Assembly: GCF_011745625.1 (NCBI RefSeq)
Contig: NW_027191472.1
Coordinates: 310,001-374,000, forward strand
Length of the DNA: 64,000 nucleotides
Source: Cladosporium halotolerans
Taxonomy: Eukaryota
Direction: 5' to 3'
A program made the position numbers and the translations under genes. Below are positions 30,201 to 36,193 of the stretch, one piece after another. How positions within the stretch are numbered: the stretch's first letter is position 1; every line of letters begins with the position of its first letter. The notes under the pieces are model-generated. The model was not told the origin of the DNA and made no database searches. It worked only from the letters and a program-made list of their open reading frames with translations.

Positions 30201-31355
30201 CGAACGATTGAGAAGACTCAGTTGGGGAGTCTGGGATGTGAGGCTGACTGGGTTGTAGTATGTTCTGCGCCGATTGAGAGGCGTTTTCGATCAGTACCTT
30301 CGGGGCCGATGAGCTTTCTCAAGGGATTGGGTGCGGTTGAGATTTGAATAGTGATCGATTGGCTAACTCGTTTTGCCCAGACGATCGTCAGCCGCGAGGT
30401 CGACCCGTCAGTCGAGCCTTCTCCCCATCCGATATCGGAATATCAGTTCAGACTGTTCTATATGTCCGTCTTCCATAGGTCTCTCTACATCCTTGGAGCT
30501 ACTACCGACGTTACCGTTCTCACTAGGGATTCTGCGACTATTGAGAGACCCTTAAGAAGAATCGCTGGAATATCCATTCGCACTGTCATATGCCTAGGCT
30601 TTAGTAGGCATTTCTGTATCCTTGGAGCTACTACCGACGTTGTCGTTCTCACTCGGGGGTCTATAACCATTGAGAGACTATTGAGAAGACTCTGGGAAAT
30701 ATCAGTCCGAACTGTCATATGCCAAGAGGTCTATAGGCCTCTCTCTATTCTTGGAGCTATCACCGACGTTACCGTTCTCACTCGGGGGTCTATAACCATT
30801 GAGAGACTATTGAGAAGACTCTGGGAAATATCAGTCCGAACTGTCATATGCCAAGAGGTCTATAGGCCTCTCTCTATCCTTGGAGCTATCACCGACGTTG
30901 CCGTTCTCACTCGGGGGTCTATTACCATTGAGAGACTATTAAGAGGGCTCGCTGAGATATTAATTCGCACTGTCACATGCCTAGGGTGTAGTAGGCATCT
31001 CCATATCCTTGGAGCTACTACCGACGTTGCCATTCTTACCGGGGGTTCTAGGGCCACTAAGAGACGGCTGAGTGGATTATCACTCTCCACTGTCACATGT
31101 CCCTAGAATAATCGATCCCCGCGTCACCTTGGAGCTGCTACCGACGTTGCCATTCTCACCGGGGGGTCTGGGACCACTGAGAGACCACTGAGAAGAACCG
31201 CTGCGGACCACCACTTTACGCCGTCACATGCTCTAGGAAAATCGAGTATCCCCACGTTCTTGGAGCTGCTACCAGCGCTGGTATTCTCACCAGGGGGTCT
31301 GGGACCACTGAGAGGAATCGCTGCGACATCATCAGTTCGCACAATCACATGCTCG
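27240..31355 (+). repeat. Head-to-tail tandem array of ~115-130 bp units (21 clear units from 28469, more degenerate copies to the left)
   Basis: Recurring core CCTTGGAGCTACTACCGACGTT...ACCATTGAGAAGACTC...ATATCAGTTCG..CTGTCACAT. Anchors at about 28469, 28576, 28760, 28873, 29029, 29152, 29275, 29483, 29593, 29693, 29811, 29927, 30043, 30157, 30493, 30622, 30751, 30880, 31009, 31129 and 31260, with degenerate matches near 27245, 27585, 27870 and 28115. Left edge is approximate. Confidence 0.93.
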
Positions 31356-31546: not shown

Positions 31547-32980
31547 ATGACGAAGAGCCTGTCCAACCGCGACAGAAAGAACAGGCAGAAGGAGAAGAAG
31601 CGCAATGCGCTGGAGAGAGAGAGACAGGAGGCGGATGCGCAACTAGCGCAGGAGTGGTATGAAGAGGAGGACCCCGCAGGCGGGCGCCAGCCCACCCCGC
31701 CCAGCGACGCCGAGGGCACGGAGACCGGGGCGCTAGACCCCGGCTCCTCCTCCACAACACCAAGCGCCGCCACCACCGCCGCCGCCGCCGCGACAGAAGA
31801 TACCGGCAACATGCAGCCAGAGACGCCCGCCGAGGGCGCAAACATCGAGGAGGCCGACGCCGCCAGCAAACTCCGCTACCTCACGGAGAGATACGAGGAG
31901 GAGAAGGCCCAATGGTACGAGGACCTGCGCAACCTCCAAGAAAAACTAGCGGACGCACAAGAGGAAGTGCGCCTGGCCGACGAGGAACGCGACCGCACCA
32001 AGGAGATTTGTTTCGAGCTCCGCGACGAGGTACTTTCGGCCCTTGACCAGATTTCAGCAAAGGAAGCTGAAGTTCACAAGCTCGAGGACGTGGTCGATCA
32101 GGAGAAACACAATGTCATCGCCGCACAACGAGAGATCAACAGGCTGAAGGCAGAGAGGGACTCCTCCATCAAGGCTGCCGAAGACAGCAACTCCGAGCTC
32201 ACCGACGCAATCAATCGCAGGAATGCCGCCGAGAGCCACAACGACAGCTACCGAGTCAACGTCGAAGGGCTCCAAAACGAGGTCGCGCACCTCACCTGCG
32301 CGTACAGGGAGTCGGAGGAGGACCTGCGCGAGGTCCACGCTGCAATGGACAGGGCCTTTGTCGGGATGGCATCGGACCTGTCCCGTTCCCAGCAGCTGGA
32401 CCTCCTCCGAGAGCAGCACGATGCTGCGGTCCAGGCTCTCGCCGTTTCCGGCTCGTCGGCGGAAGACGAGTCGGAGGACAACTCGGAGGCAGAGGGTGGG
32501 CACAAGGCGCAACGTCCAGCGCCGCTCACCCTCTCCGCGCTCTCCGTCGTGGAGACTGCCCCCGTCACTACGGGCAGAGGTGTCTCCTCCACCGGCACGC
32601 AGACCGCCGGTGCTGTCGTCGCGGCCGTCGTCGCCGCCCCCCCTTCTCTGGTGTCCTGTGGTGTGCAGACCACTGCGCCACCCACAAAATCCGCCGGCAC
32701 GCAGACGGCCCCACTTGCTGGCGAGCAAGTGGCAGTGCCCGTCGCGGTCACGCCGCGCTGGATGTGGGTGGTCTTCCTGGCCATCGCCGCCGCTTGCCTC
32801 GCCGCCTTTGCCGCTCTCTCGCGGGAGCGGCAACTCTGGGTCGTTGCCAACGACCTGACCTACCTCCGGTTCGCAGGGACCGAGACGGAAGGTTGGGTCG
32901 ATTGGTTCGGCCTGGGGTTGGCTGTCCTGGCAGTTGGCACGGCCGGGAGCAGTGGTCTGGGCTCTGGCTTGCTCGGCTAG
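31547..32980 (+). CDS. Intronless coiled-coil protein with TQT motifs and C-terminal membrane anchor, function unknown (477 aa)
   Basis: Strong GC3 codon bias. Basic N-terminus (RDRKNRQKEKKR), ~190 aa heptad-rich region, STGTQT / SCGVQT / SAGTQT motifs, TM WMWVVFLAIAAACLAAFAAL, then ERQLWVVANDLT and a second hydrophobic tail. Confidence 0.85.
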   Translation: MTKSLSNRDRKNRQKEKKRNALERERQEADAQLAQEWYEEEDPAGGRQPTPPSDAEGTETGALDPGSSSTTPSAATTAAAAATEDTGNMQPETPAEGANIEEADAASKLRYLTERYEEEKAQWYEDLRNLQEKLADAQEEVRLADEERDRTKEICFELRDEVLSALDQISAKEAEVHKLEDVVDQEKHNVIAAQREINRLKAERDSSIKAAEDSNSELTDAINRRNAAESHNDSYRVNVEGLQNEVAHLTCAYRESEEDLREVHAAMDRAFVGMASDLSRSQQLDLLREQHDAAVQALAVSGSSAEDESEDNSEAEGGHKAQRPAPLTLSALSVVETAPVTTGRGVSSTGTQTAGAVVAAVVAAPPSLVSCGVQTTAPPTKSAGTQTAPLAGEQVAVPVAVTPRWMWVVFLAIAAACLAAFAALSRERQLWVVANDLTYLRFAGTETEGWVDWFGLGLAVLAVGTAGSSGLGSGLLG

Positions 32981-33127
32981 CGTGTTGTCGAGGTAGCTCC
33001 TGGACAGTGATCGCGGTGACACCGGCGTTCGCGCTGGTATCCGCTGAAGATCCTGCCAGGGCCCGAGTAGGGACGATACCCAGGGCGCGTCAATGCCCTC
33101 GGTGTTCCCGAAACGGACCTCACACGC
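32980..33127 (+). ncRNA. Structured RNA element, copy 1 (three-way junction, UUCG-capped arm, loop-E arm)
   Basis: P1 GAGGT(32990-94)/ACCTC(33117-21), extended by CGTGT/ACACG. Arm A CCTGG/CCAGG...ACCGGCG-TTCG-CGCTGGT. Arm B CCG-AGTA-GGGA...TCCC-GAAA-CGG. Confidence 0.65.
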
Positions 33128-33158
33128 CGCCTTGCAGCACCACAGGCAAGACCGGAGG

Positions 33159-33327
33159 AGGGGACTTATCTGGGGCAGCTCCTGGACGGTGGAGTAGCGG
33201 TGATGCCGGCGTTCGCGCTGGTTGCCGTGAAACTCCCGACAGGGCCTTAGTAGGATGAGACCGTGAAGGCCTTCGGGCCTTCGGTAGTCCGAACGGGGCC
33301 CCATTTCTTTTTTGTTGAGATACCCCT
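33159..33327 (+). ncRNA. Structured RNA element, copy 2, with a T-rich tract at its 3' side
   Basis: P1 TGGGGC(33171-76)/GCCCCA(33298-303). Arm A CCTG/CAGG...GCCGGCG-TTCG-CGCTGGT. Arm B CCT-TAGTA-GGAT...GAAGGCC-TTCG-GGCCTTC...GTCC-GAAC-GGG. TTTCTTTTTT at 33304-33313. Confidence 0.68.
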
Positions 33328-33412
33328 GGGTCTGGGTTTGGTTTGGGTTTGGGTTTGGGTTGGCGTTCTGGGTTTTGCTTGGGTTTTGGTTTTGCTTGGG
33401 CTGTTTGGTTTT
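33328..33412 (+). repeat. GT-rich telomere-variant tract ((TTTGGG)n-like) with G-quadruplex potential
   Basis: GGGTCTGGGTTTGGTTTGGGTTTGGGTTTGGGTTGG...GGGTTTTGCTTGGGTTTTGGTTTTGCTTGGG, with essentially no A over about 85 nt. Confidence 0.8.
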
Positions 33413-33420
33413 TATAGTGA

Positions 33421-33452
33421 GTCACGACGGGAGTCGTGCACCTAATGATGAT
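33421..33452 (+). other. Terminal GNRA hairpin plus short (ATG)n tail
   Basis: CACGAC-GGGA-GTCGTG (33423-33438) followed by CACCTAATGATGAT. Confidence 0.5.
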
Positions 33453-34181
33453 ACCCCCGCCGCCACCAGTTGTGGTCGAGCCTCCCGCTGATCTTGTTTT
33501 CCATTCTCCATCTCTCCATCGTGACTTCACTGTTTCTTCGTGCTCTGGTGAGGTTCTACTCTCCGCTAATGGTCTTCCGCACGAGCTGCTACCGTCAGCT
33601 TTGGCCTGTTATATAGATCCGTCACCGCTGAGATGCGTTGTAGCCGGGTTGTCTCAGTCACAACATGACCGAGCGTGACTTGGTCGTTTTTCTTCCCGAT
33701 ACCTGCCGCGATCATCCCAGCTCGTGACCCCTGGTACTGCACCAAGAAATCGCAACACGAGCTGTTGTCATCCGCTCTGTTCTAATGTAACGAATTTTTG
33801 CCATTGAGATCCCCTGCACGTGGTTGCGCGCGAAGGTGCAGGCTTGGTGGTGCTGCCGTACTACTTTGATGGATTCGCGTGGTCTGCTATCGACCTTCGC
33901 TCTCCACTATGTACTTCCTATGTGAGTCGCTACCATCAGTGGCAGTTTGAAGACGAGATCAAGGGTATGAAATGCTTTGCGAAGAATCGCGCATGCTGCA
34001 TGACATCTGCGGGTGCGACCATCGTCTCCGGCATCGTGAAGGAGGGTGTTGTCCAGGAGGCACTTCTGAATGAATCCAAACTACAAGCTCGCCTCGTGCA
34101 CTCGCACGAAAGGACAATCGTACATAATGTCTCGAGAACAAGAACTTCATTGCCATGATCATTACATCCCTAAACCCTCAC

Positions 34182-35065
34182 TTACGCACTCTTACAACCC
34201 CTGACCGCCTCCCTCGCCTTTCCCACCAACCCATCGCCCTCGCAAGCTTCCAACCTCTCCTCCCAAACCCCCCACCTCTCCTCGTTGAAACCCCTCCACT
34301 CCTTCCCCTCCATCGCCTGCCCCTGCTTCGCCATCTTGCCCTCAAACTCCTTGCCCTGCCGCGACATCCCCCACAGCGCCGGCGCCGCGTACGCAAGCCA
34401 GGCCGCCGCCGCCGCTTGCGAGGTCTTGTCCGACGCCGGCGAGGGCGCGCTGTCCTCGAGCGCCATGCGGATTGTCCAGATGGCGTAGAGCGAGAAGTCG
34501 CTCGAGGCGGGAGCAGGGGTCGCGGAATGCTGCGTCGAGACTAGCGTTGCCGCGAAGGCGTTGAGGTTAATCCAGGCACTGCGCGCGTGGTGGTGCGAGT
34601 GGTCGGTTGCGGCTGTGAGGAGTGTTTGTTAGTGGATGCTGTGGAATGAGGGCGGTTTCCATGAGGATGGTAGGGCTTGCCAGCATTCCAGGCTTCTCTC
34701 ATCGCCGCCCCAAACACAGGCAGCTCTTTCCAGACTGTGGCGTCCCAGACTTTGCAGACCTTGCCGTTGCGCTCGAGGACGGGTCTGTCGCGCAGCGCGA
34801 GCACGAAGTCTGCGAGTTTCTGCCTGCCGGCGCTGTCGTGTGGTGTTTGCGTTGCTGCGGCGATGATGGCTTTCCAGGCGTGCCAGAGCTGGGCTTCGAT
34901 TTCGGATGTCGCTTTGGATTGCATGAAGAGGTCTTCGGTTGGGCCGCAGAAGGAGTCGAGCGCTGTGCCGAGGGATTGCGGTTTGTTGGAGAGATGCGTT
35001 GTTAGGCACTTGTATTCGGCGGAGTGTTTGATCGTGTGGTCGGGTTCAATGCTTGGGCCGCCCAT
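34182..35065 (-). CDS. DUF3632 family protein (one GC-AG intron)
   Basis: Motifs WKELPVFGAAMREAWN, WINLNAFAATL, YAIWTIRMALED, AAAAWLAYA and ERWGVW. Intron 34613-34680 (GCAAGC...CTAAC...CAG) restores the frame. Confidence 0.85.
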
Positions 35066-36193
35066 TGTGGTGGTGTTGGCGGGCTGTTTGGTGGCGGGTT
35101 GACGTGGTCGAGATCCTTGAGTGGAGTTGATGGTCTTTAGAGCGGGAGTCTTCTGGTGAGAAACAATCGAAGTATTCTTGCAAGAAAAGGTAAGCTCCAA
35201 TGCCAGCTGGTACTTCTTCCAAGAATCCAGAACGCGATGACGATGCAGGTACCTGAATGCCCTGACGTTACGTGGTGGCGCCCACTGCGACCACGGGCTC
35301 GCCGAGCTCCATTGCCACTCCACCCCTGCTCTCAACTGTCTGCCTTAGCAGCCTTAGCGGAAACCTCGCACTCCGCGACGTGACTACGCTCCACAAGCCA
35401 GCCGCGAGAGACGCTGCCACCGACCACGGATATTCCAGGATGACAACCACATGCCCTCGCCAGTGGGCCGCCCGCCAGGGAACAACAAGGCACCTGCCCG
35501 AGCCGGCTAGCCGCGTAGATCACTCCTGGGGCGGGCCAAGTGAAACTTGACGAGCCGACTGCACTCTACTTTGCCTGCCGCCGTTCACTGGACGGTCGCT
35601 ATAATTGAGTTGGCTTGGGATGGCCAGGACCCGCTCTGCATCTTGCATACTCGATAAGACATGTGCCTGCAGCGACGTCTCCGAATGGCTTGCTCGGGCC
35701 CGCGTTATGCTGCTTTCCCGGTGCAACATCGACCTGCACAGCCTTTTACACTCGAGAGTAGGACGGCCTGGCCGAGGAGATGGTTATTGGACGGCGTACC
35801 GGACTTGTTACCCTTTTAGTGAGTTGCCAATACATCGTGGCGGGCTTCTTTGGTTGTAAGCCCTCCTCGCCCCGGCTCTTGTAGGCAGGAGATGGAAAAG
35901 AGATCGGCACTGCGCATGAGCGACGGACCAAGGGCTTTCGAAGACTGCCCTCGGTTGCAGCCAAGAGCTGTATCTAATCCACGCCGTCGATGAGCGCCGA
36001 TGAGCTGCTCAAACCATGTGCAGATAGCATGGCGAGCCTCAAAGAACATAAGTATTGAGCGTTGTGCCGCATTGGAACTGGGTTTCTGTTCAGCAGCAGC
36101 ACCGCGAGTCTCACCGCCCTTCGTTCCAGATCTTGATACACGAGCTCATACAAACCAATCTACATTCGCTTTCTCCCATTCAAATCATTCACA

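Follow-up and report, generated by a model that had tools for sequence, protein, structure and literature searches.

Does the DNA directly behind the stop codon of a 477-amino-acid open reading frame (ORF) of Cladosporium halotolerans encode a folded RNA, and if so, what could such an RNA do? The stretch that raises this question comprises 64,000 nucleotides (nt) (assembly GCF_011745625.1, contig NW_027191472.1, positions 310,001-374,000, forward strand); it is called the window below, and all positions are given in its numbering. An earlier note on this DNA had described two tandem, diverged copies of an RNA of ~130 nt that keep their pairings, and all motifs listed there are present in the window. 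According to the analysis reported here, both derive from a single RNA domain of ~131 nt that folds and is not catalogued, and they stand in tandem as diverged copies of it. Few structured elements have been described in fungal mRNAs, and almost none of these are of the junction type or arranged in tandem; the fold described here stands at a stop codon, shows compensated divergence and matches no family. It is a compact object, and its two natural variants represent a ready mutational series.

Architecture of the two copies

Both copies (Table 1) fold alike into a three-way junction, which consists of a closing helix, a long arm A tipped by UUCG and an arm B with an AGUA/GAA internal loop. The shared scheme contains 46 pairs in eleven short helices, with a closing helix of 5 base pairs (bp). 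Arm A is ~68 nt long and ends in an invariant tip of 7 bp that UUCG closes; below the tip it is interrupted by bulges, by a UGAY internal loop and by a (U)GAA bulge. In arm B, the first 3 bp from the junction are followed by AGUA opposite GAA(A/C) and then by three further helices. In copy 1, the UUCG tip is found at 33028-31 and AGUA (33066-69) faces GAAA (33110-13), while copy 2 has UUCG tips at 33212-15 and 33272-75 and an AGUA (33249-52) facing GAAC (33291-94). The AGCT strand, the CCGGCG-TTCG-CGCTGGT tip and the AGTA opposite GAA are kept in both copies, as the earlier note had stated. Its limits for copy 1 hold, and those it gave for copy 2 (33171-33303) are best drawn in to 33172-33302, a core that positions 33171 and 33303 could extend by one U-A pair. 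A plain alignment of the copies gives 85% identity, and their guanine-plus-cytosine (G+C) content is 64-66%.

Copy 1 has a minimum free energy of -66.6 kcal/mol (z -4.44), and none of 200 shuffled sequences folds as well. The energy of the shared scheme lies within 3.5 kcal/mol of the minimum in both copies (-63.2 compared with -66.6 kcal/mol in copy 1, -60.0 compared with -63.5 kcal/mol in copy 2). The lowest-energy fold of copy 2 differs from the homologous junction, which costs 3.5 kcal/mol more. If the flanks of copy 1 are included, the minimum-free-energy fold of 148 nt in all keeps the three-way junction and adds an outer helix of 6 bp. This helix starts at the final base of the stop codon, shows pair probabilities of 0.95-0.98 and leaves a 4-nt 5' bulge (TGTC). 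A flank helix for copy 2, pairing the purine tract at 33153-63 with the U tract, was rejected, its pair probabilities being only 0.08-0.17. We also discarded a loop-loop contact between the arms, because UGAC/GUCA pairs in copy 1 only and is lost in copy 2. The 5' bulge could also pair with the UGAY loop of arm A, a candidate pseudoknot of 4 bp in both copies (TGTC/GACA and TATC/GATG) that includes one matched change.

According to Tandem Repeats Finder, the apical UUCG hairpin of copy 2 is made up of an exact repeat of GGCCTTCG (2.1 units, 33268-33284). This apical stem may have arisen by one slippage event on a palindrome instead of stepwise compensation.

Compensatory changes and strand

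A structural alignment of the two copies revealed 24 changed paired positions. Ten of the 46 pairs have changed on both sides and still pair, three have changed on one side to a wobble, and one is broken. As a null model, 24 random substitutions were placed on the paired positions of copy 1. In the 200,000 simulations, pairs that had changed on both sides and still formed numbered 1.3 on average and never more than 7, while on average 16.5 pairs, and never fewer than 6, were broken; not one simulation reached the observed values, in agreement with the earlier proposal of a structure that is under selection at the RNA level.

A covariance model (R1) built from copy 1 alone led to a similar result. 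It scores copy 2 with 77.9 bits (E 7e-15), compared with 165.7 bits for copy 1, its own source sequence. In the resulting alignment, 98.9% of the 89 cells pair and 13 pairs are changed two-sidedly, which none of 500 shuffles reached. Slid controls, in which the 3' partners were moved by 1-3 columns, yielded 0-3 two-sided pairs and only 34-51% paired cells. Compensated changes are found in six different helices, one of them the closing helix with its long-range pairing. Both alignments are fitted to the structure, and apical arm B requires indels; the helices that depend least on the choice of alignment are the closing helix, H3 and H4, whose 12 pairs are anchored by identical flanking letters, and here we counted five two-sided changes and no break.

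The individual replacements agree with the previous description in most cases: GAGGT/ACCTC of the closing helix becomes GGGGC/GCCCC, GGGA/TCCC of arm B becomes GGAT/GTCC, and the apical stem AGGGCG/TGCCCT becomes GAAGGCC/GGCCTTC with a UUCG cap. For the middle of arm A, the change from GATC/GATC to GAGT/ACTC stands, and the additional G-C pair of the longer version, GGAGT/ACTCC, is shared with the neighbouring helix.

On the plus strand, the scheme includes two G-U pairs in copy 1 and six in copy 2, all of which are mismatches on the other strand, and copy 2 folds better in this direction (z -2.66 compared with -1.28 on the minus strand). Because of these G-U pairs and the better folding, we assign the RNA the sense of the 477-amino-acid ORF, which is the orientation already assumed in the note. 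The sequence likeness between the copies ends at the closing helices, except for TTGTC/TTATC just 5' of each. Together with the unlike spacers, this is expected if only the fold was kept. Taken together, we consider it very probable that the fold is real and has been kept by selection on the plus-strand RNA, while the adjoining spacers decayed.

Search for known families and further copies

No match was obtained with Rfam 15 at the gathering threshold for the whole window. A permissive search (E up to 10) of the 551 nt from 32900 to 33450 gave no match to 5S ribosomal RNA (rRNA) and returned only the C/D box small nucleolar RNA (snoRNA) Afu_514 (RF01515), which is not significant (14.3 bits compared with a gathering score of 39, E 3.5), so that the family is as unrecognised as the first reading had it. 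A C/D snoRNA would also call for a CUGA beside the 3' strand of the closing helix, where there is none. By eye, the internal loops show none of the motifs of a kink-turn, a selenocysteine insertion sequence (SECIS) or an H/ACA RNA, and these readings were rejected. Self-cleaving ribozymes (hammerhead, twister, hairpin, hepatitis delta virus-like, pistol and hatchet) gave no Rfam match either, and the hammerhead-like CUGAAGA of copy 1 reads GUGAAAC in copy 2, leaving the suggestion of a ribozyme without support.

The copy 1 covariance model was then run against the 64 kb with filters off. It returned 17 matches at E up to 10, of which the two copies alone are significant; the third-best match (17.4 bits) is the antisense of arm B of copy 1. 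The lack of a further copy within 64 kb argues against a dispersed repeat. A tRNA-derived short interspersed nuclear element (SINE) or tRNA-like element is likewise a weak explanation, since in the 64 kb ARAGORN found no tRNA-like gene and the covariance model no more than the two copies. The idea of a reverse transcriptase recognition signal is weak for the same reasons, and no reverse transcriptase is encoded nearby.

Beyond the window, we scanned metagenomes with the pattern AGCTCCTGGAC, a gap of 7-14, GGTGA, 8 free bases and TTCG. All 47 loci listed look like chance matches within coding DNA of high G+C content, and at none of them does the sequence go on to resemble the element. A 21-base pattern of the arm A tip hit 21 loci in prokaryote genomes, all in unrelated coding contexts (V-M-P-A-F-A-L type), and a scan of viral contigs gave no match. 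Miscalled ORFs over homologous elements were sought by searching proteins with 32981-33304 translated from the minus strand; five candidates resulted, none of them significant. Literal strings of the element sequence retrieved no paper. As far as Rfam 15 and the DNA and protein collections searched can tell, the element is novel, and the evidence for it comes from one species.

As a side result of these scans, G+C-rich patterns of 20-21 bases match far more often in high-G+C genomes than an estimate from uniform composition predicts; the 47 and 21 exact matches all lay in coding DNA, in codon runs such as E-L-L-D and V-M-P-A-F-A-L.

Host gene and genomic surroundings

Table 1. Positions of the element, its parts and the adjoining features in the window.
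Feature	Positions	Strand	Basis and remarks
Upstream ORF, 477 amino acids	31547..32980	+	ORF list; coiled-coil protein with hydrophobic C-terminal segment
Copy 1 with outer flank helix	32980..33127	+	GCGTGT 32980-85 pairs with ACACGC 33122-27; minimum-free-energy fold
Copy 1 core, 132 nt	32990..33121	+	Closing helix, arm A, arm B
Spacer between the copies, 50 nt	33122..33171	+	Unlike the trailer behind copy 2 (alignment)
Copy 2 core, 131 nt	33172..33302	+	Same junction as copy 1
155-nt unit (copy 2 and trailer)	33173..33327	+	Closes head to tail in run X20; contig mapping
U-rich tract TTTCTTTTTT	33304..33313	+	Directly behind copy 2; weak pairing with 33153-63
Imperfect TGGGTT/TGGTTT-type microsatellite	33327..33412	+	Tandem Repeats Finder; directly behind the 155-nt unit

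The upstream ORF ends with a TAG stop codon at 32978-32980, and the core of copy 1 begins 9 nt 3' of it. The next downstream gene (DUF3632, 34541-35335) is convergent to this ORF. Because the element lies just behind a plus-strand stop codon and its downstream neighbour is convergent, the sequence from 32981 onward is most simply a 3' untranslated region (UTR).

For the product of the 477-amino-acid ORF, Pfam gives a weak coiled-coil match and nothing else. Among 5.8 billion proteins it has two relatives, with 88% and 81% identity. Both agree with it residue for residue for the greater part of their length and are strongly diverged in residues 133-215; one of the two has a frameshifted C-terminus, and relative P0001 has the same residues at its C-terminal end as the C. 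halotolerans product. With only two relatives, a diverged block and a frameshifted C-terminus, the gene is, judged by its sequence, lineage-restricted, polymorphic and fast-changing. The diverged residues correspond to a coiled-coil block (window 31943-32191) that looks like a mosaic of, possibly balanced, allelic classes in one species.

In the presumed 3' UTR, the hexamer ATACCC occurs on the plus strand three times within ~380 nt (33076-33081, 33320-33325 and 33451-33456). The whole window contains 22 matches compared with 11.8 expected, a number reached in one of 100 shuffles. AUACCC is the binding motif of Khd4, an mRNA-stability factor of Ustilago; the genome studied here looks ascomycete, so this is a lead only.

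A further tandem repeat, with units of 129 nt (43 codons) in 4-6 copies of 71-83% identity, is located at 30472-31200, ~350-1,075 nt upstream of the ATG of the 477-amino-acid ORF. It is unlike the folded element. A plus-strand frame (30351-31106, 251 amino acids) is open through most of it, and the repeat could be either coding or a minisatellite. The microsatellite behind the 155-nt unit interrupts assemblies and read mapping and was treated as a repeat. The DNA of the window is eukaryotic with 50-68% G+C, its long open frames include a haspin kinase, a RasGAP, DNA polymerase eta and an Ofd1-type oxygenase, and the closest protein clusters of its products are from Ascomycota.

Occurrence in public sequencing runs

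Part of the region 32700-33500, used as an 801-nt query, is contained in 20 public sequencing runs from 16 studies. We mapped the RNA libraries X17, X19 and X20 and run X4, which is of uncertain kind, on 32300-33700. Since the runs were chosen by matching this stretch, their coverage is partly due to selection. The RNA-library data are Logan contigs, from which strand, ends and level are not readable, and the libraries may contain DNA.

Each of the three RNA libraries has exactly one short contig, and it lies over copy 2. The contig of X17, an oligo-dT library from soil, covers 33166-33309 and ceases to fit the window at 33309, in the U-rich tract. That of X19 covers 33100-33259 and runs through the spacer into copy 1. 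The contig of the marine library X20 covers 33173-33304, and a second piece of the same record at 33275-33322 reaches past the T run. No contig of these libraries lies over the ORF, most of copy 1 or the downstream DNA, which for contigs is no evidence of absence. The contigs therefore demonstrate presence in RNA libraries, as distinct from transcription; that three of three fall on the same 155 nt of the 801-nt query is nevertheless suggestive.

The X20 record is 185 nt long. Its positions 1-132 correspond to 33304..33173 and its positions 138-185 to 33322..33275, and the first 30 and last 30 letters fall on the same places of the window, so that the record amounts to a 155-nt cycle that closes on itself, with the k-1 overlap added. 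The cycle joins 33327 to 33173 inside the short repeat CTGGG, which is present at 33170-74 and 33326-30. For the copy 2 unit this leaves two readings, tandem amplification in the strain behind X20 or a circle.

Run X4 covers the whole mapped stretch at even depth and looks like DNA. Two haplotypes are present, 6-16% apart in some blocks and identical in 32535-33136. A 660-nt contig (32505-33164) carries three substitutions, all of them in the 475 nt of ORF that it covers, and none in 32981-33164, which comprises copy 1 and the spacer. Over 33137-33253 the run has two alleles with 3 and 11 differences. In addition, a G inserted behind 32978 turns the TAG stop codon into TGA with its position kept.

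Possible roles of the element

Based on these observations, we tentatively favour a role of the domain as a cis-acting module of the 3' UTR, which would use its loop E platform and its invariant tip to dock a protein and would also shield or mark the 3' end. The sense of the fold, its place right at the stop codon, a neighbouring gene that is convergent and an oligo-dT contig that ends within the U tract all fit this role. Run X4 is counted in its support as well, since the stop codon is kept and the region behind it is free of substitutions, compared with three in the ORF. According to this proposal, the domain would be transcribed in the sense of the 477-amino-acid gene and account for nearly all of the first part of its 3' UTR. 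The copies fold independently of each other into a Y shape, with a bulged-G loop of the loop E type placed three pairs from the junction, and the loop E platform and the invariant UUCG tip would provide recognition surfaces for a protein. Such compact junctions could mark the message at its 3' end or protect it there and block its decay, and the presence of two copies may give redundancy or cooperativity. Should it turn out that the element blocks decay or senses a protein in the cell, or that a UTR sets it free as a small RNA, it would represent a new class of eukaryotic post-transcriptional control.

Several observations weigh against the cis-acting module. The RNA-library contigs lie over copy 2 except for 22 nt of copy 1 (33100-33121, X19) and avoid the ORF, a pattern for which a separate small RNA is no worse an explanation than a UTR, and a plain UTR does not predict the closed cycle of X20. 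A lineage-restricted and fast-changing host gene is an odd place for an old, conserved UTR element. All of the covariation derives from two paralogues within a single genome, and orthologues were not seen. The 4-bp candidate pseudoknot is broken by the variant 33169 T>C, which X17, X19 and X4, the three runs covering this site, all show. What the data show directly is the fold, its selection, the strand, the position and the presence in RNA libraries, while action in cis, binding of a protein and an effect on stability are inferred.

An alternative that is nearly as good, if on the whole somewhat unlikely, is that the copies represent one or more genes for a small, stable non-coding RNA, either released from the transcript or expressed separately under a promoter of its own (possibly by RNA polymerase III, with termination in the T run), and acting in trans like 5S rRNA, Y RNAs and other small RNAs with closed ends. 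This would explain better than the cis-acting module why copy 2 alone appears in the RNA libraries, where it provides the sole contig in three of three and leaves the ORF and the downstream DNA uncovered. A length of ~131 nt, a 5S-like architecture with three-way junction and loop E arm, and a closing helix uniting both ends, a trait of many stable small RNAs, all agree with it, and a T6 run is located 5 nt behind copy 2. Moreover, one study (PMC8216456) lists 'intergenic structures' of Pezizomycotina that stand alone and are similar in size, which demonstrates that orphan RNA genes exist. However, neither the X19 contig, which extends upstream into copy 1, nor that of X20, which passes the T run and reaches 33322, stops at the ends of the fold, and copy 1 has no T run. 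As a gene for RNA polymerase III, the element was rejected: the T run alone fits, the likeness to box A and box B is poor by eye (only TAGC and GTTCG fit), and ARAGORN remained without a hit. There is no Rfam match, and the coverage on which this explanation draws is in part a product of how the runs were found.

An origin without any RNA function appears improbable. Here, the copies would be a minisatellite (a variable-number tandem repeat) or the relic of a mobile element, with hairpins made and kept at the DNA level by replication slippage, template switching in quasi-palindromes and gene conversion. The head-to-tail junction of the 155-nt unit in X20, at 5 nt of microhomology, suggests copy-number change, and the exact slippage repeat in the apical hairpin of copy 2, the 129-nt repeat upstream, the microsatellite directly behind and the mosaic haplotype blocks seen in X4 and in the protein alignment all count in its favour. 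Template switching, however, is local, whereas six helices have changed in step and the two strands of the closing helix are ~125 nt apart. The many G-U pairs would be mismatches in DNA and on the other strand, and the spacers have diverged beyond recognition while the fold is still 85% identical. No further copy is found in the 64 kb, and neither a terminal inverted repeat nor a target duplication was seen. Should the copies nevertheless be such a repeat, they would serve as a warning against inferring structure from the covariation of paralogues.

Even less credible is a derivative of 5S rRNA, that is, a decayed pair of 5S genes or a 5S mimic within the mRNA that binds uL18/L5 or TFIIIA. The order of parts (closing helix, 5' arm, 3' arm with an AGUA/GAA loop E) and the size resemble 5S rRNA, and P5SM, a 5S mimic, is reportedly located inside a protein-coding pre-mRNA of plants. 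On the other hand, the Rfam 5S model failed to match the 551 nt even at E up to 10. Helix I of 5S rRNA has 9-10 bp and its loop E is set off from the junction by helix V (7-8 bp), compared with a closing helix of 5 bp and a distance of 3 bp here; in addition, both arms are longer than in 5S rRNA and nothing connects the host gene with ribosome biogenesis.

We give least credence of all to a self-processing or circular RNA of the viroid or retrozyme type, in which the 155-nt unit would be cut from multimeric or UTR transcripts and ligated: a closed cycle in an RNA library, a closing helix that brings the ends together and a loop E motif, found in pospiviroids where processing and ligation take place, would fit, but no known self-cleaving ribozyme family matches, copy 2 has lost the hammerhead-like core, the trailer and the T run are part of the cycle, whose junction is a microhomology of the DNA type, a combination that a genomic tandem duplication accounts for more simply, and the contigs of X17 and X19 are collinear with the window. 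It is most unlikely that the copy 2 unit is cut from a 3' UTR transcript into a stable, genome-encoded circle by host enzymes using the closing helix and loop E, and equally so that the closed contig of the marine RNA library is the trace of such a circle, which would be smaller than any viroid. The circular RNAs of Botryosphaeria were dropped from consideration: the passages on them in PMC9875651 give ~40% G+C for the 157-nt BdcRNA 3.2, compared with 64-66% in the copies, and state no genomic copy, and nothing links the two.

Comparison with known systems

The tandem arrangement of a junction fold within one transcript is reminiscent of riboswitches. To our knowledge, the thiamine pyrophosphate (TPP) riboswitch is the sole established class in eukaryotes. 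Tandem aptamers and the TPP riboswitch share with the element the junction fold and the closing helix, and the plant TPP riboswitch also acts from a 3' UTR. Unlike them, the element shows no Rfam riboswitch match, no evident ligand pocket and no metabolic role of its host gene that would hint at a ligand.

Flaviviruses carry three-way-junction modules, the exoribonuclease-resistant RNAs (xrRNAs), as diverged tandem duplicates at the start of the 3' UTR, directly behind the stop codon, just as the two copies are arranged here. The element differs from them by its size, which is about twofold larger, by the lack of a match to any Rfam xrRNA model and by its association with a cellular gene instead of a virus. 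Of the pseudoknot that closes the xrRNA ring, only the 4-bp candidate could be found, which a common variant breaks. The concept of exoribonuclease-resistant RNA is outlined in the abstract of PMC12081666.

Orphan structures of Ascomycota have been described by Gao, Jones and Rivas (2021, PMC8216456) and by Li and Breaker (2017, PMC5640933). In the relevant passages of the former, which deals with Pezizomycotina, 'intergenic structure 2' has a mean length of 144 nt and 24 covarying pairs, and several fungal 3' UTR structures are included as well. As compared by description, these structures resemble the element in size, in the lack of an assigned function and, for some, in their location within a 3' UTR. 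They mostly occur as a single copy per genome, in contrast to the tandem pair found here, and the words 'three-way' and 'tandem' do not appear in the passages of either paper on orphan structures.

In its shape, the element comes closest to 5S rRNA (RF00001), a three-way junction of ~120-130 nt whose ends are joined by a closing helix and whose 3' arm carries loop E. Apart from the missing 5S score, the shorter closing helix, the longer arms and the position of loop E nearer the junction, it differs from 5S rRNA by its other internal loops, its UUCG tips and a host gene unrelated to 5S biology. P5SM adds to this likeness in that such a shape can sit within a protein-coding transcript. With the sequence models failing, we file the element under neither system: its shape is most like that of 5S rRNA and P5SM, and its arrangement is most like that of the xrRNA pairs.

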